Shown: positions 32,135 to 50,408 of the stretch, one piece after another | Layout of the letters: every line of letters starts with the position of its first letter | Position numbering within the stretch: the first letter of the stretch is position 1 | From: Phallusia mammillata | Taxonomy: Eukaryota | Direction: 5' to 3' | Assembly: GCA_965637545.1 (NCBI GenBank) | Contig: OZ281495.1 | Location: 26,474,001-26,538,000, forward strand | Length of the DNA: 64,000 nucleotides | Made by a program: the position numbers and the translations under genes | The notes under the pieces: model-generated | What the model saw: the letters and a program-made list of their open reading frames with translations, nothing else | Database searches by the model: none | What the model was told of the DNA's origin: nothing

Positions 32135-34261
32135 ACCCCCCACAACGAGCCCCACACATCAGAACGGGACGATAGCGTCGCTATGAGGGAAATACCCAAA
32201 GTCCCCTTTCATACTGTGACCTATCAGTGTCCATTGAGGTTCGCGTTCGACAAAAACGCATCGATTTTAGCTGTATTCTTTAACTCGCGTTTCTTGCATA
32301 CACTATCCAGGTCTCTGCCGCTTAATATGTATATTATATAAATATATATTGGTATGCATTTAAGTGACTGCATTACCGGGCTGACAGCGTTTTCTACATT
32401 GTACACCACTGCTCATAGCAGGTGATCTTCTACTTGTGCATTGTGATTTTATGCGTCCTTGACTATGGGTGGCGACTTACATAACCTACGCTATAATACT
32501 TGAACTCGCATATATTCCACTTACAAACAACAGCATTTTTTGTGCCATTCCGTACAGTAAATGAATCTGATTTATCATTCCACTAACTTAACACTGCTCC
32601 ATTCCACACCCGAACCAACCTTAATGTACTACAAATATGTATTTTCTCAGTGTAAATGTAGTTGGACTTTTGCTACGCGTTTTTAACATTATTCCCCGGT
32701 AGAGCTATCAGTATGCGTAGAAGGCATCGCGTATTAGACTGGCAGTATTTTAAAACAGCGTTAAACCTTAAATACTTCCAAACGAAATTTGCACGAAATA
32801 CCTGGAGCCTATAAAACACCCCCTTTTTTGCTGTATCAATAAGCACAATTTGTAACATATCAAATTTGCACTGCTACTTGGGATATACACCACAGCGCGA
32901 ACTGCTTTAGCCTTGCAATCATTCTTTGTGTTTTCTTATGTGGCCTAATTTTGTGTAGTGCCCGCGTTATAACTTTAATATCGCTTGTGCCTGGTTGTCG
33001 CTTTTGCATCGTCCCTTTTCTTTTTCCGCGTCTTGTTTTAACTTTGCCTTGACAACGATTCGCGCCGTGTCAGCGCCCCCTATCGCTCAGAGGAATGGGA
33101 ACTCGAAAAACAAACGTTCCCCTAAAAAAAATTGTCAAGAGTGTATGTGGCAGAATAAAAAGGAAGCAGAAAAACAAATCAAAATTAGAAATGCTACAGC
33201 GCATTCATTTCTTTTTTAAATCCGTTCAAACATTTAAGTCTAAAACTAGTCGAGACTGCAAATTAAGCCTTGTTTTTTTAGAAACTTGGTCACACTTTAT
33301 GTCTTCGATGCCGTTTTGGTAGATTAAACAAAATGTTAGAACCGAAATGTTATCAGGATTTTGTATCGACCAGCCGTACATCACCAAAAACACATTATCA
33401 GCCATCAGTTAACCAAGAGGACTTCCCGCTATTCTAAACAGCAGTCTTACTGTAGCATAAAACTTTTTAAGGGGGGCGTAACAGATCCTCCAACAGAATT
33501 GTGCAACATCATTTCCTTGGCATGTGAAAATCAAAAAATTCGTGCCATTTTTACGGATCTGACGTTGTTTACTTGCCAACGTGACTTTAGATCAGTGGCT
33601 TTCATACGTTTGAGGCTTGCGGCACACAAACCTTTTCTTTGCGTGGGACGCTTTGCAGACTAAAACACTGGTTCCATCATTTGGCAGGGATTTAGGCCTT
33701 CGTTATGAGCCTTGATTGCAGAGTCTCAAGCCTTTCGCATAATTAAATGAGCAGTCTCGGGTTTGAGATCAGGTTATAACAGGTTCTTGGGTTTGTTGGC
33801 AAGGTTAATAATACCACACAATTACTAATTCCCGTACTGGCAAAAAAAGTGTGAAACACTACCACGTCCACCGAATTCATGATCTAGCTAGGCCTGTGCT
33901 TAATTGTGCTGTTATGTTTCTCGAAGTTGGTCGACTAAAAAGTCTTATACATCGCGTATTTTGTTGCAAACATTTTAACCATTTGACTTTGTTATGCGGC
34001 CTTTTTAATTCTTACGAATTATACCAGCAACTTCCAAAAAGTTAACTGGATTTGCGATGATTCACAATTCACAAAATCAAATGCAATGCAATCTAAAAAG
34101 CCGATTTGTTTATCTTTTAAGTTCGTTTGCACATTATATGCCCGACTCCAATTAGTAAGATAAAGAAGAGAAAATCACAAATTATCGACAAACTTTTGCA
34201 ACCAACATCCGTCTTCTTGTGCTTGGTTTCTATGAACTTGCCTTTTTTCTATTTCACGTAA

Positions 34262-34306
34262 TCACGTGACAAAGCGCCAGATGTAAATGAATGTTTCTTC
34301 TTTCTT
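34262..34306 (+). promoter_or_regulatory. Core promoter: E-box TCACGTGAC plus TCT/5'TOP-like pyrimidine initiator
   Basis: TCACGTGAC at 34262-34270; ttCtttctt with C at 34300 fits the TCT initiator YC+1TYTYY; followed by a good donor AAG|GTAGGT at 34363/34364. Confidence 0.55.
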
Positions 34307-35647
34307 GACCTTTCGGAGCTGGTGTTGACATCTCGTTGGAGCTGTGCGCGAATCTATGAAAAGGTAGGTGAAGCGGTTTTGTTGAAATTTAATTGCAAAA
34401 TTTGTGTAAGAAAGGCATTTTACCTGGATTTAAACGATTGGAGAACGCTGTAATTTTTAAGTAAAAAATATATTTTGTATTTTAAGTAAAAACACTTGTG
34501 AACGCAATAAAAGTTTGCTTAAGATTTGTCAGAAACAAAGTATTTTTAGCGCGGTTATAATAATAACGTTAGGGGATGTTTATACGTTGTCAGTCAAAGA
34601 TTGGTAAGCAGTCATAGCCCACATTTTTTCCGAGCAAAATCTAATCAACCAGAAAATCAAGCTTTTAATTACAGTTTCGTTGCGTAACATGTTGTCGTAA
34701 AAATTAAATGATTAACTGAATATGAATCTTGTAAAATAGCTTCTTCGGTAACATGGGTAATGCTTTAGCAAGATCTTATCAAATCAAGCTTTCAACAATA
34801 GGCAAGTTCTACATTTCGTTCCTCTGTGACATAACAATGCCACGTTGTAAACGCAATTCCCGATGCGTGCTGTTTTCAGGCGATCGGCGCTTTTTGCTGA
34901 TAACCGCGCCAGTTGCGTTCCTAGCCTTTCAGAATTCAGTTGTTATAGTTTTGTTGTCGGCAGCATAGAAAAAAGAAAGAAAACCTAATTGCTTATCCAC
35001 AGTTACTTGAACTGTTTCAGATTGTGCTGGTATCAGAATGCTTCTGAATTTAGGCTGCACAAGATCCGAGTTTTTCAATGCTGATGGCCCAACTACAATG
35101 AACGGCATTTGCTGTATGATTTGCATGCCATCAATGTAAAAGTAAGTTGTTTTACTTATTTTTAGACGTTCTAATTTTTGTGACAAGTCTTTGTCAGCTT
35201 AAAAACATGTGCGTTTGCAAGCATGCTATTTTTTCAACTTACGTGCAGTTTATAACTTAAGTATGCCAACTGAAAATAGTTGTATAAATAGTTGATGTTT
35301 TGTGTTTTTGTTAGGTCAATTAGTAAAATTGGCAAGAATTCATGTAGGCCTACCTTTTGTGTTTCCGCTATACAGCCTTGTCTGCATTGTTGTAAAATAA
35401 ACATCAGTCGAAAAAAATTGAAGAAATAGTTAAATTGTTAGTTGTGGGGTTAACTTGACAATGGTCTTAAGTTTAGACATCAAGTATCAATTTGGGGAGT
35501 TGTTTAGTACATTATAGATTTGAAGGATGTGTTTTTACAGAATGTGCATTAAAACATTATTTGTGTGTATAAAGTGGTTGTAAACAAAAACTTACAGGGG
35601 GGGAATTACTTTAATTTAATCAACAACGTCAGTCAGGCCCCAACATT

Positions 35648-35822
35648 TCTTGCGCAATAATCGTCATCCAATCCACGTGTTGCATAAATGACGTAACGAT
35701 TCCTGGTATGCGCAGGGCAGTCACGTGACAAATTATGCCAATCATCTGATTCTATTTGCTCACGCAGAAACAAGCGCTGATTGAATTTTTTGTAATCCAG
35801 GTTGATTGCGAGACTTTTGCGT
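35648..35822 (+). other. Conserved intronic module, copy 1
   Basis: Shares ordered motifs with 37015-37181, including the identical 25-mer TGGTATGCGCAGGGCAGTCACGTGA. Confidence 0.85.
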
Positions 35823-37014
35823 GCCTTCGGTGTTAGCTACCGATTAAATGTGATCATGTTGGTCCCTTTTATTCTAAACTGAGTAATGTACATCGTGGGT
35901 TCGTGGCTATGCATTTTAATAAAAACAAACAAAAGCAAACTAACGTTAAAAATTATGTTGCGCACCGAACTTCCTATCATTAAGGTGGTTTAAATAATTT
36001 TGTGATCAAACATTGTATGTAGGCTACTAAAAAGAAATAATACATAATAAAGTTGCTTATCCTTTTGATGATTTCCCGGCGGTTTCTCTTTAAATGACTT
36101 TGATATTTTGGTGCTTAGTAGGTAAATAGCACCATTTTGCAACTAACGTTATTATTATTATTTTTTCAGGTTAAGCTTCTTCAATGGAAGTGCTTCGAAC
36201 GATAAATCGACATAAACGTCAAGTCGCGTATACATTCTACTGCTCCTGGCAAAGACTAGCTACGACATCTATAATAAAGGTAAGCTTTCGTTTGCCTGTG
36301 CAGTATCTGTCGTTTTGATGTGTTACCAACTAAGCCGTAATATTGTTTCGGGAATCAGATAATTGTTCAGCGATTTGACATTGCCCACAGCTGCTTTATG
36401 TTTTGTTTTGTTAACAGTAAAAATACTGGATGCCGGTATACTGGATTTTGTCGTGTGCTAAACCAAGCTTTAAAGCTTTGTGTTTATCATTGTAGTTAAT
36501 CATACCACAAAACAGGTAAAGTGTATATTGGTCAGTGTGTTGTTGTCGATGGTCTTCAAGTCATTGGTGCCGAGTTTTCATATTTGTCCGTTTGGTAATT
36601 GCATTTCTTTATGTTAAGAACATTATTTTACTTGTAAATGGTGCTAAGTTGACTCTGAAAACTAGCCGGCCGCAACGTTTAAGTCATGTGGTTTTTGCTT
36701 AGTTTGGATAAAAGTAAGAATTGTCCGAAAACTGGATGCTTAAGCTTTTGTATGTTGTTCGCTAACGCTTTGTTTTAACTATAGCAGAAAGTAATTAAAA
36801 CTTATGATTATAAGTAACTAAAGTAGTTAAATTGTTAATTGTTTGTTGGAATTGCAGTGTTGTTGAATTCGGGCACTTAATATCAATTTTAAAGTTGTTT
36901 TGTTATGTTGGGCTTAAATGTTTGGCACTCTGTCTGACCATTAGAACAGATTTTGTGAAAAAATATATCGGGTGGCTTTATTTAAACCAATAACTCTATT
37001 TAAACGTCAAAAAG

Positions 37015-37181
37015 TCTTGCGCAATCTTCTGCAATTCACGTGTACCTTAAGTGACGTAACGAAGCTTGGTATGCGCAGGGCAGTCACGTGATAAATTAAC
37101 CCAATCATCTGATGATATTTGCTCACTTAACTCGCTGATTGCTGTATGCACATATTTCGGACTGATTGCAAGATTTTGCGT
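37015..37181 (+). other. Conserved intronic module, copy 2
   Basis: Paralog of 35648-35822: motifs conserved, spacers diverged. Confidence 0.85.
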
Positions 37182-40100
37182 CTCCTGTGTGACCTACTAA
37201 TCATAACAGGTCACCACGTTTGCGTGCGTCTTCTCGTTCTTGAGCATTGCAAGTAGATCGTTTATTTATGCTTTAATTGCCAATTCCCAAGTATGATGTA
37301 CCGAATTTAAACCGTTCTGAAGATGGCAAAATGACTGCTTTGCTTTAAAAATTAGTCACTGTATTACCGTAGCAAAATTGTTAACAAGTCTATTTTGAGA
37401 CACTTGCTGTTGTAAACTTTATTTCAAACACTATCTCGCTAAACGTTTAACGTATTGCATCACAGTTAAAAAGAATGATAAAAAACTGATGCCATCTATA
37501 AAAAGTTGTCTTGTAAAATAACGATATGTGAATTCTAACTTACCACATTGTTTACAGAATACACCTGTCCTCGTCAACAAAATATGCACCAGATGCGGAT
37601 CACCATCATACACCAAGGACAGTCGAAATGTGATTGCCATACGTACATGCGCATTTTTATGAACTTAGACTGCAAAATCACACCTTAATTTCAACTGGAC
37701 CTTCAGAGCGATTTCATATGCGTACCGGTATTATCGTGGAAGACTTGAAATCACGACGTTACCACGGTCAACCAACACCCACATTCATGGACAGCCATAT
37801 ATCGGCATTATACGCAGTAGACTGACACCATGATGTGGACGCATTGTGGACGGCCAAGTACAATGCATTGTGGACGGTCAAGTAGTTGCCGTACGTGCGT
37901 CGGCATTACACGCCATGGACTTGGACTTCTTGCGCTTGACATATTGACTTATATTGTACGCGGCGGTTTGTTAGTTACGAATTGTAATTGCAGTCGCACA
38001 AGTTACAAGTTGGTCAAGCAGTAACAGAAACAGCTCGAATAAGTGCAGTTGAAAACTGTTAAGGTAGCCTAACTCTTAGATTGAGACAAAAGTTATTAGC
38101 AAAGCTGGAATTCAAATTTAGAAATAAAACAGTAGCCCAGAAAGGAGTTGCGCATTCAGTTGATTTTTCCGAATATTGAGTAGTTTGTGACGTTCATCGA
38201 TTTTGGTGTTGCGTGATGTTTCTCGATCACTGAAACCAGTGCATGGTTTCGGCGTTTGGGAATTCCCCTCTACATGTTAACTTGCGCAAATGCCCCCAAA
38301 CCCCCAACACCTGGTTGTTCAACGTTGTACCTGCGTATTCGTGTTACAAGACTGTGCACAGTTCTGTAATGCGAACGGTATTCCGAAAAGTTGCTCTGTT
38401 TGTGCATAGTTTTAGACAGTTCGGTTGAGTTGAAGTAAGAAAGAAGGCAATAGTATAGTGAGGTATTATTAACAGCGGTTTTAGTTTATTTGTGTGATTG
38501 CAATTTGTTTTCTTGTGAAACGCTTCTTTGTAAAACCCTAGAGAATCCTAATGGTAAATTGCTTTGCATATTAGTTCCCGCTTTGATCATATTGTTGTTA
38601 CAATGTTGATATGGTATATTTTAAAATGCAACGCCTTTTGACGGTTATTGCCTTCAAAGCAAGTGTTTGTCTGTGCTGGACTGTATTGGGAAAAAGCCGT
38701 TTACCGTTGACTGGAAATGAATTGGATTTATAACAAGCTTTTACAATCATGTAACGACTGAAAATAATTTACATAACGTAGTATTGTTCATAATTACGTT
38801 ACCGGGTCTGAAAATGCATAATATTCTGTTTGATTTTTGTATTACAAAAACATTATATTTATTACGCAGCGACGGCTGACGAAAAAATTTGTATACTGAA
38901 AATTTATATTGATTTGTGGTGCTGTATTTTGTTTTCTTGGCAACCCTGCGATTGCTGTTCTTAAAGCAACGAACCTAAAAATTGTAATATTGTGAAAATT
39001 GGCCCTTTTACCACCCAGCGACGGCTGGAGATAGTTTTTAAGACGCAGCGATTGCTGACGATAAATGGACGCCCCAAAATGCACGTCGCTATTTTATTGT
39101 CATTTGAATTCGTCATGAAGCTGCTGTAGTTGAATTGTAAATATGTCCGCTTTCATAACTCCCCGTCGACTGGATATTACTCAAAATGCAGCGTTTATTA
39201 GCTGCATATCATTGTATTGTGTTGATTTGCTTTTTCGAAAGGCACATTTCACAAAAACTGCCTTTTTGCCAACGACGTTAGGAAATAGTTTTCAAACTCA
39301 GCAACAGCTGACGTAATAGTAACAAACCTTAAAAGTGCACGTTTGTATTTTGTGCTGCATAAAACGGCTTTTTGCTACCCAGCGACGGCTGGACGTAACT
39401 ATACGCTCCCCTCGTGTGTTTTTGTGTTCGCAATAACCTGTTGCTATTGTCGCATTATGAATCAATCGGTGTCGTGCATCACACTTAAAAGTAAGTACCC
39501 GTGTTGCAAGTCAAAAACCCTGGGCATTTTTTTATTTGGCTATTTTTACCTTCAGGCAGATGCACGATGGAAATGACGTCACCAACGGTTGCCATGGGAA
39601 CCTGTTGACATTCGGCCGGGAGGGTGGGTCCTTTCGATGAATCGCAAACTTCGGGTGGTAAGTTATGTTTTTTGTTGTTTTCACAGCTCGTGTCTTGTTT
39701 GCTGTTGCCTTTGATCAAAAGAGAAATGATGTCAGAATGCATTTGTTTCTTTGTTGTAAATATAGTCCTTTCTGCCTCAATCAAATCTATCATACCAAGA
39801 TAAATTCATAAATTCGGCCGTACATGACTTCGGTTTCAAAATTAATTCAATTTTCTATCTCCAGAGAAAGCTGTCTGATGCATCGAATGCCGTACTCCTA
39901 GAAACCGGAAAACATCAGCTGAAATCCTGATCCGCAGCACATGGCCTCCTGTGATGCAGCAATTACAAAACAGGTTTGTAAATTTCACTTTTTTGGAACA
40001 AATATTACCCAACTCGCTGTAACACTAAAGAGCACATTAACTCACAGCGTTATTTAAGACTGTAATCACTTTCGCAAGTCTTAGTGAAATACGCATCTTT

Positions 40101-42442
40101 ACTAAGGCGGAATTTTCGAATAAAATGCTACTCCAGCACTTTTCTAAAAAAGTTTTATCGAATCCAGAGTACTGAATCCTATTCTGTTTAATCCTATCAT
40201 CGAGTTGGACTTTTTGGATTTGTATAGTTAAGGAATTAAATCCCCACTTAGATGTTCCAAATTGCACTTTTCCAAAAAGTAAACTTGTCATTTTTTTCTA
40301 CAGGTTACCACAATAACACGAACAGACAAAAGCACGTGACATGACGTACCACGGTTTATTCGTTCTCTGGGTGAAGATGATGGAGGCTAAACGTAAGTTT
40401 ATAACAGCACACACTCCTATTTCTGTTTAACAATAGCTTTGTTCAGTACAAAGTAGATGAAGCAAACAGTAAAATATTTCTATGTAGGTTTCCATTTTTT
40501 CATTGTAGTTTTCCATTTAGTTTTGATAAACGGCAATTTAAATTTCGTTGGACTAACTGGTTTGTTTTGTGCAGGCGAATCGGATTTTCCTGCTGTTGGG
40601 ACCTTAGTACGTCTACATCGACACTGAAAACACCCACCCCAAAAGCTTCAAGGTACGAACTACCAAAAATAATTCTGCGCAATCTTTTTCCCAAGTTGAA
40701 AGCCAGCATGCAGTTCAAACGATTAGCCGTTTTGCAGTTTCTTCTTTTTTTTTGCTTATCTGATACAACTTTGGCTGCAAAACGATTCCTTAAAAAACTG
40801 CATCGTCAAGGGCCATACAATCTTCTTAACAAAACAGTTGTCTAACACAACTATCACACCGAAGTCGTTTAAAAGTGTTTAATCACATAAACCCCAGCTG
40901 GCTGTAATACAACAGTGTAACAAAACGTTGGCATTTTCTAATTTTCTTCTCTGTTTCAGATTCTTCATATCCATCAACTCGCCTTCAAGTCTCCGTCCCG
41001 TTATCATCTACAAAAATACGGGATGTCAGTTATTGGTAGGAGGCTGCTGCGTTATAGTCAACATTGAATGCGAGATTTTCACCTATAGGCCCATAACTCT
41101 ATGCTAACTTGCGCTGGGCCTCCATTCGTCATGGTCAGGTCCAGCGGATTGGAGGCCCACGTCATTTTTGTTTTTTTTGGTGCTACAAATTAAGTCGCAA
41201 TTAAGTTTATATGTAGTTGTAGCACCGATAACTAGGGGTAAGAATAGTTAGGCTGGGGCATTTTTGGGTTAGCGCGCCGCATTCCCCCTTAGTTATGGGT
41301 TTAGTTAGGCGCGGCGCGTTAAACTTTAGCGTTAAAACCTAGGGATAGAAACACGTCGCCCTCACCCACCCAGGCCCGCTGGGGGTCGATTCCACCGGAG
41401 TTTGATCCCCAGGAGTCAAAATTCCACCGGAGACTGGTACCGGTGCAGGCGGCCTCAGTCTCCCCTCATTTTTGGGCTGGAGAGGAAAGGTTCGCGAGCA
41501 CGCCGGCTAAAAATACCGTAAGGATGTTTTCAATTCCCCCCTAAAACTGTCTGAATTTGGGAGGGTCCGTCTTTGATGATGTCTTTTTCTGACCCTCTTT
41601 GATGATGATGTTGTTTGTCACAGTGTCCTAAATTTGTTTGCGGTCGCCTTTTTACACGTGGCACTTTCTCTGTCTTCCCTTGTCGTTATAAGCTTGAGCG
41701 CATTTTAACTGAGGGATTGTCGCTTGTTGTTGCACTGTTCCGTCGGTGCCGTGCATCTGTATTGGCTGAACGACCCACTCGCAGTTTATTCTTCCCTATG
41801 AATACCCTGGACTGCGGCTGGATTGCGATGTCATGCAGGTGCACACAATGTTCTTCGGTTGTTGTGGCAAAGCCTGCCACCCAGCGGATCTTGCAGCTCG
41901 TGTATTTTTCCACAGGTACTTTTATTTGCAGGTACATTTTTCCACAGGTTTTGTTCGTTTTTTATTCCATATGCTGTCTGCATATGTTATATTTTATTAT
42001 TAATATTATATTATATTATTACCTAACTACCCAAATCTCGCATTCCTTGTTGACTCGGTCGGATAAACCCATCTAAAAGCTCTGTTTGTTTCATAACTTT
42101 GCTTTTCGTGAGGTTTAAACTGCCAGGCGCGGCAGCCTCACATTTTACTTTTATAGGCTGCTGTTGAGAAGTCCAATAGATAGCGAGCTCAGAAGCTGTT
42201 TTTTCCTTGTTTTTGTTTGTGATCTAGTTGCGGCGGCATTATAGGGGCGCGCAGGACGATGGCGGTTCCACAAGTATGTTTGTGAGTTAGACTTAATAAC
42301 GTTAGGTGCAAATAGCACTGAAGAAGATGAACAACCAATCGTGTACGATTTGATAGGAGATCAACCAATCGCGTACCAGATGAACGAAGAACAATTTTAT
42401 AACTTAATTGAACACACGAGTGGCTTAAGCTTACTTTTATTT

Positions 42443-42968
42443 GACCACAACTAACCATTGGTGGTTACAGTTGTCCACGACTACATTTTAGTGGCAACAT
42501 GGTTACACAGGATTCAAAATAAAGTGACCTATAGGATGCTTTTGTGACTACAACTAACCATTGGTGGTATGGGGGAAATTGATATTACTGTTGTCCACGA
42601 CTAAATTTTAGTGGCAACTCGGTTTAGCTAAGATAAACGAACTACAACATTTACTCTGACAACAACTAACCATTGGTGGTTGCTTTTGCGAAAATGATAT
42701 TTTAGTTGTCCACGACTAAATTTTAGTGGCAACTTTATTTAGCAATCTTGAAAACAACATGAACGTTTTCTGTGACCACAACTAAACTTTGGTGGTTACT
42801 TTGAAACCTTTACTTAGTTGTCCACGAAAAACTTCTGGTGGCAACTTGGTTTAGCAGGTTTAAAAATAAAGTAACCGAAGTAATATTTCCATGACCATAC
42901 CTAAATATTGGTGGTTATTTCATGCAAAATGACATTTTAATTGTCCACGACTAAATTTTAGTGACAAC
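42443..42968. repeat. Array of 10 alternating palindromic repeats (A/B) with variable spacers, period 103-123 bp
   Basis: A = GACCACAACTAACCATTGGTGGT at 42443, 42546, 42658, 42774, 42893; B = GTTGTCCACGACTAAATTTTAGTGGCAAC at 42470, 42590, 42705, 42817, 42940. Confidence 0.92.
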
Positions 42969-43064
42969 ATACTGAACTGAAGTTAACAAACTAACCATCC
43001 TTTATTTATCACAGGAAACCAGCTTGTTTGAACTTTTACGCAGTTTAATATGCTGCTTGAAATA

Positions 43065-43178
43065 AGTAGTTTAGTATACTACTTGGATTTTGAACCTAAA
43101 AGTAGTTTAATATACTACTTTGAAATTAGAACCAAAACAACAAGGTAGTTTGATATACTACCAGAAAATTAGAACCTG
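43065..43178. repeat. Three copies of a hairpin-containing unit GTAGTTTRRTATACTAC...GAACC
   Basis: Copies start near 43065, 43101 and 43144. Confidence 0.8.
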
Positions 43179-43350
43179 ACTATTATAAAATTGTTTGTTT
43201 ATTGTGTAAAATCTTTCTAGGTTTAATTTGTTGTGTAATACACGTCGCGGTATAGGCGTTAACTCTTCCTTCCTTATTTGCTAAAAGTTGTTTAAAATTG
43301 GCAACCTAACTTAGATTATATTGATGTGAATGGGATGTGTTTGGATTTAT

Positions 43351-44673
43351 ATTCTCTCTAAATCGGCGCGGCGAATTTAGATCCAGTTTAGTTAATACTG
43401 CGAGCTGCTTCGTGGTTAAGTCAGCCAGGCAAATCGGGCCGCCATCGTCAGATGCTAGCATTTACAAGTACAGGGTCATAGTTACAGAGGCTGCTTGCAT
43501 AAGATCAAGGAATCTGATTTTGGAACGAGTTTTGAAGTTGAGCATTGTATATTGTTATGTGACGAACTAACACTGTTGTTTTGTTTTGCAGATGTATGGA
43601 AGATTGCAAAGGGGAAGCTGGTTATTTTGTATTCACGACTTTTTTTTTTTTTTTAGGTACGGCCCAAATGGCGAGGAATTTTGATGGAAAATTAGAAGGG
43701 TGAATAATAGTATAGTTTAAGCTCAAAAATTAATCCTATTTTTTATACACGATTGACACAAAACAAAAAACAAACAATGGAAAATTGTAATGGAGTATCT
43801 AATTATATCAAATGGAATCACAAAACAATAGTCAATCATATGGAGTATATATTGCTACGTAAGTGCACAGGTATCAAGTAGGCGCCCATTTGCAGAGATT
43901 TTTTTGGCAAATGGACCAGTGTTGTCTTCCTCGTCTCGGCCTGGTTCTGCGTCAGACGAGGGTCTCTCCACTGCCAACCAACGAGAGACCCACTGCGAGA
44001 GTTGGCACCTCGACGTGGTTCAGTGGCCTGATTTAGAACTAAGACCAACTCGCAGAACCCAAAATAATGCTTTAGAATTTCAATGTAAACAACAATAACG
44101 GATACCCAAAATTGTGCACAAATTAGTGCCCAGTGCTAATTGGTAAACCTGAAATTTGAACATGAAAAATGGTTTGTTTTGCAGAGTATTGAAGATTGTG
44201 TGGTTTGAAGGGAGGGTTATGCGTATTATTCAGTACAAATTGTGTAGTTTCACTAAATAAACTGAGATTTGTTAGCTGGGTTATAGTTTTATAAACCCAA
44301 ACTTGCTTACAACACCTTTCTGATCACATAAAACGGAAAATTGGACACATAAACTGACCTCCACCGTGTAATGAAAGAAATATGTGCAATATAGTCTTTA
44401 CGACTAATTCAAAAACGGATAAACAACAATTAGTTAAGACAGGTGGCTACATTAGGATTTAGTAAATCATTGGCGGGCTGCAAGTCTCAAATGATTGAAT
44501 TTGCTATTCTGATTGACCTCTTGTTTTGGGACCGAAATAATATGACCACAAAGTGCCGATATTTGCAAAGAGAAAGAAATCAACGCGATTATGTCGTCAC
44601 AAAGAGCGCAAAAGTCCTTGTTCATATCGACAAGTATTTTGATGATGAATTTAGGAATGTGACTACTGCAATC
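43351..44673 (+). repeat. Direct segmental duplication, copy 1 (~1.3 kb)
   Basis: Colinear with 45628-47025 (e.g. ccaggcaaatcgggccgccat, gagagacccactgcgagagttggcacctcgacgtgg, ggacacataaactgacctccaccgtgtaatgaa). Confidence 0.9.
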
Positions 44674-45627: not shown

Positions 45628-47025
45628 ATTCCCTCTTTAAATCGGCGCTGCAAACTCAGATCCACTTTAGTTCTACAGAATACCGTGAGCTGCTTCGTGG
45701 TTACGGCAACCAGGCAAATCGGGCCGCCATGGTCAGAAGCTAGCATTTACAAGTACAGGGTCATAGTGACAGAGGCTGCCTGCATAAGACCAAGGAATCT
45801 AAATGCTGATTTTGGAACAAGTTTTCAAATTGAGCATTGTATATTGTTATGTGAACTAACACTGTTGTTTTGTTTTGCAGATGTATGGACGAAGATTGCA
45901 AAGGCGGGACTGGTTATTTTGTATTCACGACTAACGTTTGTTTCTGTTTTTATAGATGCGGCCCAAACGGTGAAGGATTTTTTATGGAAATTTGGAAGGG
46001 TGAATAATAGCATAGTTAAGCTCACAAATTAATCTTATATTTTTGTACACGATTGACACAAAAGAAAAAACAAACATGGAAAATTTTAATGGAATATAAA
46101 ATTAAATTGAATCAATCGGAATCAAACAATTGACATTCATTGGGATCATATGTGTTTACACGTAAGTTCAGAGGTATGATCTAGGCGTCCATTTGCAGTG
46201 ATATTTTTTTGGCAAATGGACCAGTGTTGTCTTCCTCGCTCGGCCTGGTTCTGCGCCAGACAAGGGTCTCTCCACTGCCATCTAACGAGAGACCCACTGC
46301 GAGAGTTGGCACCTCGACGTGGTGCAGTGGCCTGATTTAGAACTAAGACCAACTCGCAGAACCCAAAATAATGCTTTAGAATTTTAAAGTAAACAACGAT
46401 AAAGGATACCGAAAATTGTGCACAAATTTAGTTCCCATTCACTTTTAAACTAGCAAACCTGGATTTTGAACATGAAAAATGGTTTGTTTTGCAGAGCATT
46501 GATAATTGGGTGGTTTGAAGGGAGGGTTATGCGTATTATTCTACACTAATTGTGTAGTTTCACTTAAAATTTGTAAGCTGGGTTGTAGTTTTTTTAAACC
46601 CAAACTTGCTTACTACAGCATTCTGATCACATAAAAGGGAAAATTGGACACATAAACTGACCTCCACCGTGTAATGAATGAAACTGTACTTTTGTGCAAC
46701 CTCTTTTTTCTATTCTTACATTGGGAGCATTCGCAATGTGTGCAATATTGATTCTTAACAACTAAAAAAATGATAAACAACAATTAGTTAAGACAGGGTG
46801 GTTCAATACTTTAAAATAAAGGACTACATAAATATTTGCTAAATACTCGGCGGGCCGCAAGTGTCAAATGACTGAATTTGCTATTCGGATTGACCTCGTG
46901 TTTTGGGCCCGAAAAAATATCACTACAAAGTGCCAAAGTTTGCAATAAACAGAAAAAAATCAATGCGATTTTGTAGCCACAAAGAGCGCAAACGTGTTTG
47001 TTCTCATGTTTTGACTACTGCAATC
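45628..47025 (+). repeat. Direct segmental duplication, copy 2 (~1.4 kb)
   Basis: Colinear with 43351-44673, with small indels. Confidence 0.9.
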
Positions 47026-48544: not shown

Positions 48545-50408
48545 CTGCATCCGAATTTTAATTGCGCGAACCTGTATATCTAAATACACTGTATGACACA
48601 GATGCCTTTGTTAAATATTTGTTGCATTGATTGTTTTCACGAGAACATGAATATAAAGTGAAATTTGATTTTTTTATGATTGTGTAATAAATTAGATTGA
48701 GATAAATGTCAAGTGAGGGGGCATGGTAGGGTTATAACATGGGTCGTTTATTTCGAGTCAGATTAGGGTAATGTTGAAACAAATTCGTATTGAGGTTTAA
48801 TTTCAGGCTTGTATACTTTCAAGTTCAAGGCTCACAACTTTTAGTCTGTTTCTGTAAACTTATTTTTTCACGGGGTTCGAACCCAGGTCACCCCCGGGGA
48901 CGACTCCCCATCAGGGTTTTTATATCTGTATATGGGTCAGGCGCGCCAGACCAATTGCTATCACTAAGGGGGCGCTGAAGTATAATTGTGCGATTAGGGA
49001 GTTCTGGGAGAAGATAGAGCAGTTAAAACGAAACAAAACGACAAGTCATTTTGTCGGGCATTAAATATAGCAAAAAAACAACAAACATTACGATGAGCTT
49101 CAATAGGAACGGTGTTTGAACGTCACAATACACCGAGCGTTAACGTGAGATGCTAGGTGCTCCACTTAACAAAACAATTGCAGATTTGGCCCATTCCTGG
49201 TACCAAATTATAAAGCAAATGAGTACTTCCAGTAAAACATATAACAGAGAAAAAAAAACTGCTGTTTCAGGCGTTTATATTTGGTATACTTTTAACACAG
49301 GACAATGTATATGTTAACATTTTTGTCATGACAAAATAATTCACGTAACACAGTCTTAATGGTTACAAGCACCGATCACAAATTTTAGGATTCTTTAATG
49401 GAGCCAAGATGACTTTCGAAATTTGAAAAAAGGCCTCATATTTTTTTTTCGAAAACCGTGTCAAAATTTCGGGTTTTCGATTCCGGTTTAAACCGGTGTG
49501 GAGGTTCGCTAGGAGGCAAAAACCGACCAGAACCAGTTTGAAACTGGAATATTTCGTCGAAAACTGACCCAAAACCGGATTTTTCTTCGATTTTTTGACC
49601 CCGAAAATCGAAAAAAGGAAAGGCTATAGCCTTAGGGTTTTTTCGAAAATCGGGTCAAAATTTCGGGTTTTCGATTCCGGTTTAAACCGGTTTGAAGGTT
49701 CGGTAGGAGGCAAAAACCGGCCAGAACCAGTTTAAAACTGGAATATTCCGGCGAAAACCCACCCAAAACCGGATTTTTCTTCGTTTTTTTTACCCCGAAA
49801 ATCGGAAAAAGGGAAAGGCTTTTTCGAAAATCGGGTCAAAATTTTGGGTTTTCGATTCCGGTTTAAACCGGTTTGAAGGGTCGGTAGGAGACTAAACCGG
49901 CCAGAACCAGTTTGAAACTGGAATATTCCGGCGAAAACCCATCCAAAACCGGATTTTTCTTCGTTTTTTTGACCCCGAAATTCGAAAAAAGGGAAAGGCT
50001 ATAGTCTTTGGGTTTTTTCGAAAATTTCCCACCCAAAACCGCATTTTTCTTCGATTTTTTGACCTCTGAAATTCGAAAAAGGGAAAGGTGATAACCTTAG
50101 GTTTTTTTCGAAAATCGGGTCAAAAATTCGCGTTTTCGATTCCGGTTTAAGCCGGTTTGGAGGTTCGGTTGGAGGCTAGAACCAGTTTGAAACTGGAATA
50201 TTCCGGTTTGAACCGGTTCAAACCGGTTTGGAGGTTTGGTAGGATTATAAAACCCTACTTTAAGTTGAACTCCGTCTGATTTATTCCATAGCTATAAATG
50301 ATGGGTCATTTCGATGTTTTCGCGACAAAATTATGTAATAAATATTCAACAAAGGGGCATCAAGTTTGTTTAGACATGCAGGTTGGTGCAATTAAAATTC
50401 GGATGCAG
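48545..50408. mobile_element. Long-TIR (foldback-like) non-autonomous element
   Basis: CTGCATCCGAATTTTAATTGC at 48545 is the exact reverse complement of the 21-mer ending at 50408; imperfect inverted similarity extends ~100 bp; no TSD identified. Confidence 0.75.
49445..50245. repeat. Tandem satellite, ~180-195-bp unit, about 4 copies
   Basis: Recurrent tttcgaaaatcgggtcaaaatttcgggttttcgattccggtttaaaccggtt...agaaccagtttgaaactggaatattcc near 49445, 49640, 49820 and 50105, plus a partial unit at ~50015. Confidence 0.93.

Follow-up and report, generated by a model that had tools for sequence, protein, structure and literature searches.

Two related copies of a module of about 170 bp lie in successive introns of one locus of the tunicate Phallusia mammillata, which raises the question of whether they encode an RNA or serve as control DNA. 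The window, i.e. the whole stretch of DNA analysed, comprises 64,000 nucleotides of contig OZ281495.1 (assembly GCA_965637545.1, positions 26,474,001 to 26,538,000 of the forward strand), and all coordinates below refer to it. A sequence-only reading had left the choice between a dense, duplicated, stress- or nutrient-responsive cis-regulatory module, or alternative promoter, and a structured intron-encoded RNA with conserved CTGA boxes, and had named a high-copy transposon fragment as the outcome at odds with both. The module is real and constrained and, as far as can be judged from sequence, most likely a cis-regulatory cluster of a known kind. Taken alone it is an ordinary kind of element; the unit that hosts it is stranger and matters more.

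Module copies in the window and in the genome

Module copy 1 (35648..35822, + strand) is located in the intron that separates exon 2 from exon 3, and copy 2 (37015..37181, + strand) in the following intron. All blocks listed in the sequence-only reading were recovered in the order and at the places given there. Copy 1 contains the C/EBP-like word TTGCGCAA at 35650-35657, an E-box at 35674-35679, the CRE/PAR-like word TGACGTAA at 35689-35696, GTCACGTGA at 35720-35728 and CCAATC at 35738-35743. The corresponding positions in copy 2 are 37017-37024 (TTGCGCAA), 37037-37042 (E-box), 37052-37059 (TGACGTAA), 37083-37091 (GTCACGTGA) and 37101-37106 (CCAATC). C/EBP, CRE/PAR and the other factor names used here, with the exception of USF, NF-Y and ERSE, are labels that we presume to fit these words.

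The two copies share a 95-nt core of 86% identity at a spacing of 1363. Compared in segments of 100 nt, they reach 77% and 71% identity over the module (z 19 and 14 against shuffles) and 56-58% in the two adjoining segments (z 3), and the remaining 10 of 14 segments stay at shuffle level with 48-52%, in agreement with the unrelated flanks described earlier. The distance from the module to the next acceptor, put at about 350-380 nt, was measured as 348 and 377 nt. Contigs of all four runs, which were classed as RNA by guess and none of which is recorded as RNA, join 35141 to 36170, and contigs of three of these four guessed RNA runs join 36277(+2) to 37556, both with GT..AG borders; both module copies therefore sit within spliced introns. 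The paralogs possess a single module in the intron after exon 3, which is the place of copy 2 in the window, so that copy 1 is the extra one. In the tree the window copies form a sister pair (support 91/88, below the threshold of the tool) with terminal branches of 0.23 and 0.27, and derived letters are common to both.

The earlier description of a pair in two introns holds in so far as both introns are spliced in contigs, but the module is not a two-copy feature. The genome search yielded at least 13 matches, distributed over 10 loci and 6 contigs. When a profile was run over the DNA fetched, the same 13 copies were returned, all in sense orientation within a larger shared unit; in the genome, an exact spaced pattern matched 9 times, each time at one of the 13 (control, 0). 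The module always lies inside this unit of 9-12 kb, with place and orientation fixed. Neither the diverged subfamilies of the unit in the DNA fetched nor metagenome contigs contain a match to the module profile, and no module copy was found in another species. A high-copy MITE or SINE with sharp ends was rejected on these copy and pattern counts and on paralog homology that continues through both flanks; instead of the high-copy transposon fragment envisaged earlier, the block proved to be part of a low-copy dispersed unit.

At the C3 locus (L014-L015) three tandem units of ~3.07 kb occur, the second and third of which start mid-module, at the CRE. Just 3' of the module, the paralogs L002, L003, L004, L005 and L008 possess an ETS-like word, CCAAT-N9-CCACG and a CTCF-like word, the names ETS and CTCF being our assumption. 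This 3' extension has been lost from both window copies.

Motif constraint and E-box-CCAAT spacing

Constraint was counted over 11 full module copies, the two partial C3 copies being left out. The 39 motif columns, i.e. those of the C/EBP-like, E-box, CRE/PAR-like, GTCACGTGAC and CCAAT patterns, show 0.51 changes each compared with 1.89 for the 125 other columns, and none of 163 shifts of the motif mask matched this constraint. Copy 1 and copy 2 are identical at 38 of the 39 motif columns and at 81 of the 125 others (Fisher p 2e-5). Four of the five motif classes, which were picked with the sequence known and two of which overlap, are combined within 110 nt by module copies only, in the window and 15 fetched stretches; for each window copy this was reached in 0 of 2000 shuffles. 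Outside the motif classes, TATGCGCAG and AAGCGCTGATTG are conserved words. Exceptions are one full copy without the CCAAT box and one with both E-boxes mutated.

The distance from GTCACGTGA to CCAATC is N=9, equivalent to a gap of 10 bp between CACGTG and CCAAT, in 11 of 13 module copies including both in the window, a count that takes in three copies altered in the E-box, the 5' flank and the CCAAT, respectively. One of the other two copies has a gap of 9 bp, the other has lost its CCAAT. Genome-wide, GTCACGTGA-N(6-14)-CCAATC is present at 75 sites, and its reversed control at none. After removal of family copies and near-duplicates 59 distinct sites remain, with N=9 in 22 and N=9-12 in 51 of them (p 3e-11); the 10-bp gap is the genome-wide mode. 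The setting of 16 non-family composite sites, for which 104 of 213 frames were scanned, is mixed: one lies 5' of a GCD14 methyltransferase domain at a distance of ~670 nt, and several lie inside reading frames. PMC4889920 gives a spacing of 10-12 bp between E-box and CCAAT for USF1/2 with NF-Y, as determined in human cells; the accessible text of PMC6389100 mentions neither USF nor CCAAT. The 10-bp spacing seen across the genome suggests that the vertebrate USF/NF-Y arrangement is common to tunicates, and the 13 paralogs readily provide a tunicate footprint of a USF/NF-Y/bZIP grammar.

ERSE-I is defined as CCAAT-N9-CCACG in PMC5890977. An exact match is found just 3' of the module in 6 of the 11 other copies (6/13 overall) and in neither of the two window copies. 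The cis-regulatory half of the sequence-only reading finds support in that constraint falls on the motifs and the spacing of E-box and CCAAT fits a genome-wide grammar; the stress- or nutrient-responsive role attached to it is a guess from motif names.

Structure and transcripts of the host unit

In the window, the host unit occupies ~34220 to 44080 and is flanked by a RasGAP_C gene, which we take to be IQGAP-like, and a 7tm_1 gene. It begins with a promoter-like block, short exon 1 and block A, followed by exons 2-3 and the module. Downstream of these come exon 4 with block C, then short palindromic repeats and further small exons; block H is next, and a minisatellite separates it from block I. 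Against the central paralog, the window unit aligns in islands only, the module among them. The unit is spliced, dispersed, SL-trans-spliced and, apparently, non-coding.

The predicted promoter block and short exon 1 (34220..34363, + strand, donor GT at 34364) were aligned over 11 loci and contain a conserved TGATTTCTATGAA-like word and TCACGTGAC. One contig (run X2) joins letters matching the exon 1 of a paralog to the next block. At the window locus, contigs cover neither exon 1 nor the module, block H or block I, which speaks neither for nor against transcription there. Block A (34780..34910, +) is conserved and has an alternative acceptor near 34878. Exon 2 (35021..35141, +) bears a spliced-leader trans-splice acceptor; its acceptor AG and donor GT are kept at 11 of 11 loci, and the exon itself has frameshifting gaps. 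The 16-nt ascidian spliced leader (PMC1488885, Table 1) is found at the AG of this acceptor in one contig (X12) from one of the four runs, and the host transcript is therefore trans-spliced. Exon 3 (36170..36279, +) is the homologue of the exon located 5' of the module in the paralogs. Exon 4 and the stretch downstream of it (37558..39194, +) are covered by contigs, as is block C (38139-38453, +), which is conserved in 9 loci. Block C contains GGGAATTCCC, which we presume to be NF-kB-like, and TTGCGCAA.

Repeats of the form CAGC-N4-GCTG, often paired 30 nt apart, are located at 38858-39399; in a C6 copy (L037) they are expanded to an array of several kb with units of ~108 bp. Small predicted exons at 39557-39660 and 40305-40394 possess conserved splice sites and words presumed to be CRE-like and RFX X-box-like, as if several alternative start blocks preceded block H. 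Block H (40961..42400, +) starts at a conserved acceptor and is the most conserved part of the unit, mostly with 85-99% identity between paralogs whose introns are non-alignable and with 66-83% in diverged subfamilies. It is considered non-coding because its indel pattern breaks the frame, 53 of 66 indels not being multiples of three. Its folding z ranges from -0.27 to -2.34, which gives no clear sign of a structured RNA. A block-H word had no match in viral or metagenome contigs, and Pfam matched none of the 56 frames of at least 75 aa in three unit copies.

A 194-bp satellite occupies 49444-50115 of the window. At several paralogous loci its arrays reach from 1 to >20 kb, start 10-11 kb after the module and occur in either orientation; because of the latter, and of its absence after the C3 copy, the satellite was not counted in the unit. 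Beyond it, no homology common to most unit copies was found. Right after the satellite of one paralog (L026, 326-1819, - strand) lies a frame of 498 aa with a hAT dimerisation domain, which was not found beside other unit copies. An LTR or TIR element was rejected, as terminal repeats are absent from the four loci anchored out of seven tried, a test limited by the fuzzy ends of the unit, and as no frame of the 56 matches Pfam. Comparison by eye with the usual consensus features led to four more readings being dropped, namely a group I intron, a hammerhead, telomerase and a Helitron.

Block I at the 3' end of the unit

Block I occurs twice in the window. The first copy (43880..44060, + strand) is a predicted HDV/CPEB3-like nested pseudoknot with P1 from 43990 and one broken P1 pair; the second (46185..46365, +) lies inside a local duplication, with P1 from 46294 and all pairs intact. 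Of its 18 matches in the genome, five lie in tandem units on C6; in the DNA fetched, the matches include diverged subfamilies without the module. Over 9 copies, 96.3% of 162 cells are paired, with 7 double changes and 0 of 500 shuffles reaching the observed values, although these shuffle controls ignore the relatedness of the copies. In 9 chosen sequences including 2 metagenome contigs, 125 of 126 pairs of P1 and P2 are held, a figure calculated without the C7 copy, which is degenerate, and without the first copy of the window. A 21-nt core pattern was found in four metagenome contigs, three of which (two distinct; L094, L096) possess the fold with further changes in P2. The fourth, L095, was rejected as a chance match with neither P1 nor P2.

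The elements of block I are a 7-bp P1, a 7-bp P2, a 3-bp P3, an L3 of 7-8 nt and a one-pair P1.1. L3 has U first and G sixth, and C-N-A-A precedes the 3' strand of P2, in 9 of 9 sequences; the C7 copy has G in place of this C. The first P1 pair is C-G in 9/9, and P1.1 is G-C, i.e. of reversed polarity. The start of P1 is overlapped by an upstream hairpin, a possible competitor of P1.

Proposed function and alternative explanations

Judging by its motifs, the module is probably a USF/NF-Y/bZIP cluster of DNA motifs that would drive the transcription of its host unit from within the intron. NF-Y and USF would bind cooperatively and open the intron, factors of C/EBP and CRE/PAR type would add input, and the target of the module would be a start site that lies 5' of exon 2. 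At the window locus, intron DNA would later have been duplicated to give the second module copy, after which selection is likely to have kept the motifs in both copies as the flanks decayed; gene conversion between the two may also have played a part.

The other half of the sequence-only reading, in which the module would specify a structured RNA of the snoRNA or scaRNA sort, freed from an intron of the non-coding host transcript, is very improbable, despite a snoRNA-host-like anatomy of short non-coding exons, conserved intron islands and constant sense orientation. Hallmarks of C/D box snoRNAs are the 5' C box RUGAUGA and the D and D' boxes CUGA. RTGATGA is absent from all 13 copies, and the CTGA block CATCTGAT listed in that reading is restricted to two of the 13, the window pair. 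One CTGA, within GCTGATT, is kept in most copies, and this word also reads as an inverted CCAAT-like one. Sense-strand folding z over the 13 copies extends from -2.1, in one copy, to +1.0, with the window copies at -0.78 and -1.57 and antisense values of about -3 in two partial copies, in what is a weak test here, as block I itself yields only -0.97. The consensus fold has an unfavourable covariation term (+1.21). The covariation score of the module is reached by 30 of 500 shuffles and its double changes by 104 of 500, whereas block I under the same test is matched by 0 of 500 on both. Pairing between the 5' and 3' ends, as noted earlier, is possible but lacks compensatory change, the terminal stem having 0 double changes in either register and 7/66 or 10/66 broken cells; the complementarity may derive from C/EBP-like half sites at both ends. 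Rfam gave no match to the module and nothing relevant in the window, in 33-40 kb at E up to 10 or in six paralog stretches, and a conserved two-hairpin H/ACA fold was found neither in the consensus fold nor by an Rfam match. The module is very unlikely to be an intronic RNA and is no piece of a high-copy transposon. Equally improbable is a neutral remnant with copies alike through gene conversion or a locally low mutation rate. Tandem copies can convert, and the derived letters of the window pair would agree with this, but conversion would not single out motif columns (38/39 versus 81/125), and these columns also evolve slowly in unlinked copies, which lie on five other contigs.

Somewhat less likely is that, instead or in addition, the same sites form an internal TATA-less promoter, in which case RNA would start a short way 3' of the module and receive the leader at the acceptor that follows. 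This reading shares much with that of a cluster acting from within the intron and differs from it in the position of the RNA start. Clusters of E-box, CRE and CCAAT are typical of promoters. They count as promoter-type in PMC4889920, and the CRE lies 480-532 nt from the next acceptor in 7 copies, including the window pair with its different acceptor exons, which is close to the outron lengths given for Ciona (mean 438 bp, PMC4691747; median 458 bp, PMC11155486). However, the sole leader seen is joined to exon 2, which precedes the two copies, and contigs show cis-splicing past each of them; the equal spacing may be plain inheritance, two copies are at 706 and 749 nt, and the mixed settings of the 16 non-family composite sites also speak against a promoter. 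The unit might further be a selfish low-copy mobile element with the module as an internal control region conserved by selection on spreading copies rather than through any gain to the animal, which we consider unlikely. Its copies are dispersed, partly truncated and set among unrelated neighbours, internal minisatellites are present, subfamilies have different 5' parts, many copies end at block I, and HDV-like ribozymes occur in many non-LTR elements according to PMC3774820. Against this, none of the 56 open frames matches Pfam, introns are retained, the module is doubled at one locus only with the motifs kept in both copies, and no terminal direct or inverted repeat was present at four of four anchored loci (7 tried), save one AT-rich match of 27 nt.

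Significance and comparison with known systems

Tentatively, and as a possibility that we would not yet favour, the module may act as the switch that controls a tunicate family, hitherto undescribed, of long non-coding units that retain their introns, are SL-trans-spliced and have an ultraconserved core as well as, at their end, a variant HDV-like ribozyme that would cut the RNA 3' end without polyadenylation. Such a family would spread as whole units of 9-12 kb, swap 5' regulatory arrays between subfamilies and be selected copy by copy. For the host family neither an Rfam match nor a published description was found in the literature on tunicate ncRNAs, ribozymes, enhancers and elements, subscription papers being mostly outside the scope of this search. 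The host is of interest as a dispersed non-coding gene family with constraint at the level of motifs and a covarying, ribozyme-like 3' fold.

Non-coding snoRNA host genes of the GAS5/SNHG type resemble the unit in that their exons are short, non-coding and poorly conserved, whereas splice sites and intron islands are conserved. Unlike in these, the islands of the unit possess neither snoRNA boxes nor Rfam matches, and the unit is present in at least 10 dispersed copies and SL trans-spliced. With the USF/NF-Y composite element described in PMC4889920, the module shares CACGTG followed by CCAAT 10 bp on in 11/13 copies, together with the genome-wide spacing bias; that element rests on human ChIP data, whereas the module is a tunicate intron sequence identified by its letters. 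A further difference is that the module includes, at fixed distances, C/EBP-like and CRE/PAR-like sites and a second E-box.

Block I resembles an HDV-like ribozyme in its predicted fold, but was not filed as one because of the C-G first P1 pair, in place of G-U, and the reversed P1.1. The polarity of P1.1 in HDV-like ribozymes is C22-G38. Their further features include a U20.G25 wobble, a catalytic C in J4/2 and G1.U at the cleavage site (PMC4836649). The nested P1/P2/P3/P1.1, the wobble letters of L3 and C-N-A-A are alike in block I and in the HDV-like ribozymes CPEB3 and R2, as presented in PMC4836649 and PMC3774820. Unlike the HDV-like ribozymes compared, block I stands at the 3' end of a conserved unit with no reverse transcriptase frame nearby. 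If block I cleaves, the HDV-like class would be widened to a C-G pair at the cleavage site, and to a ribozyme that ends a long RNA.
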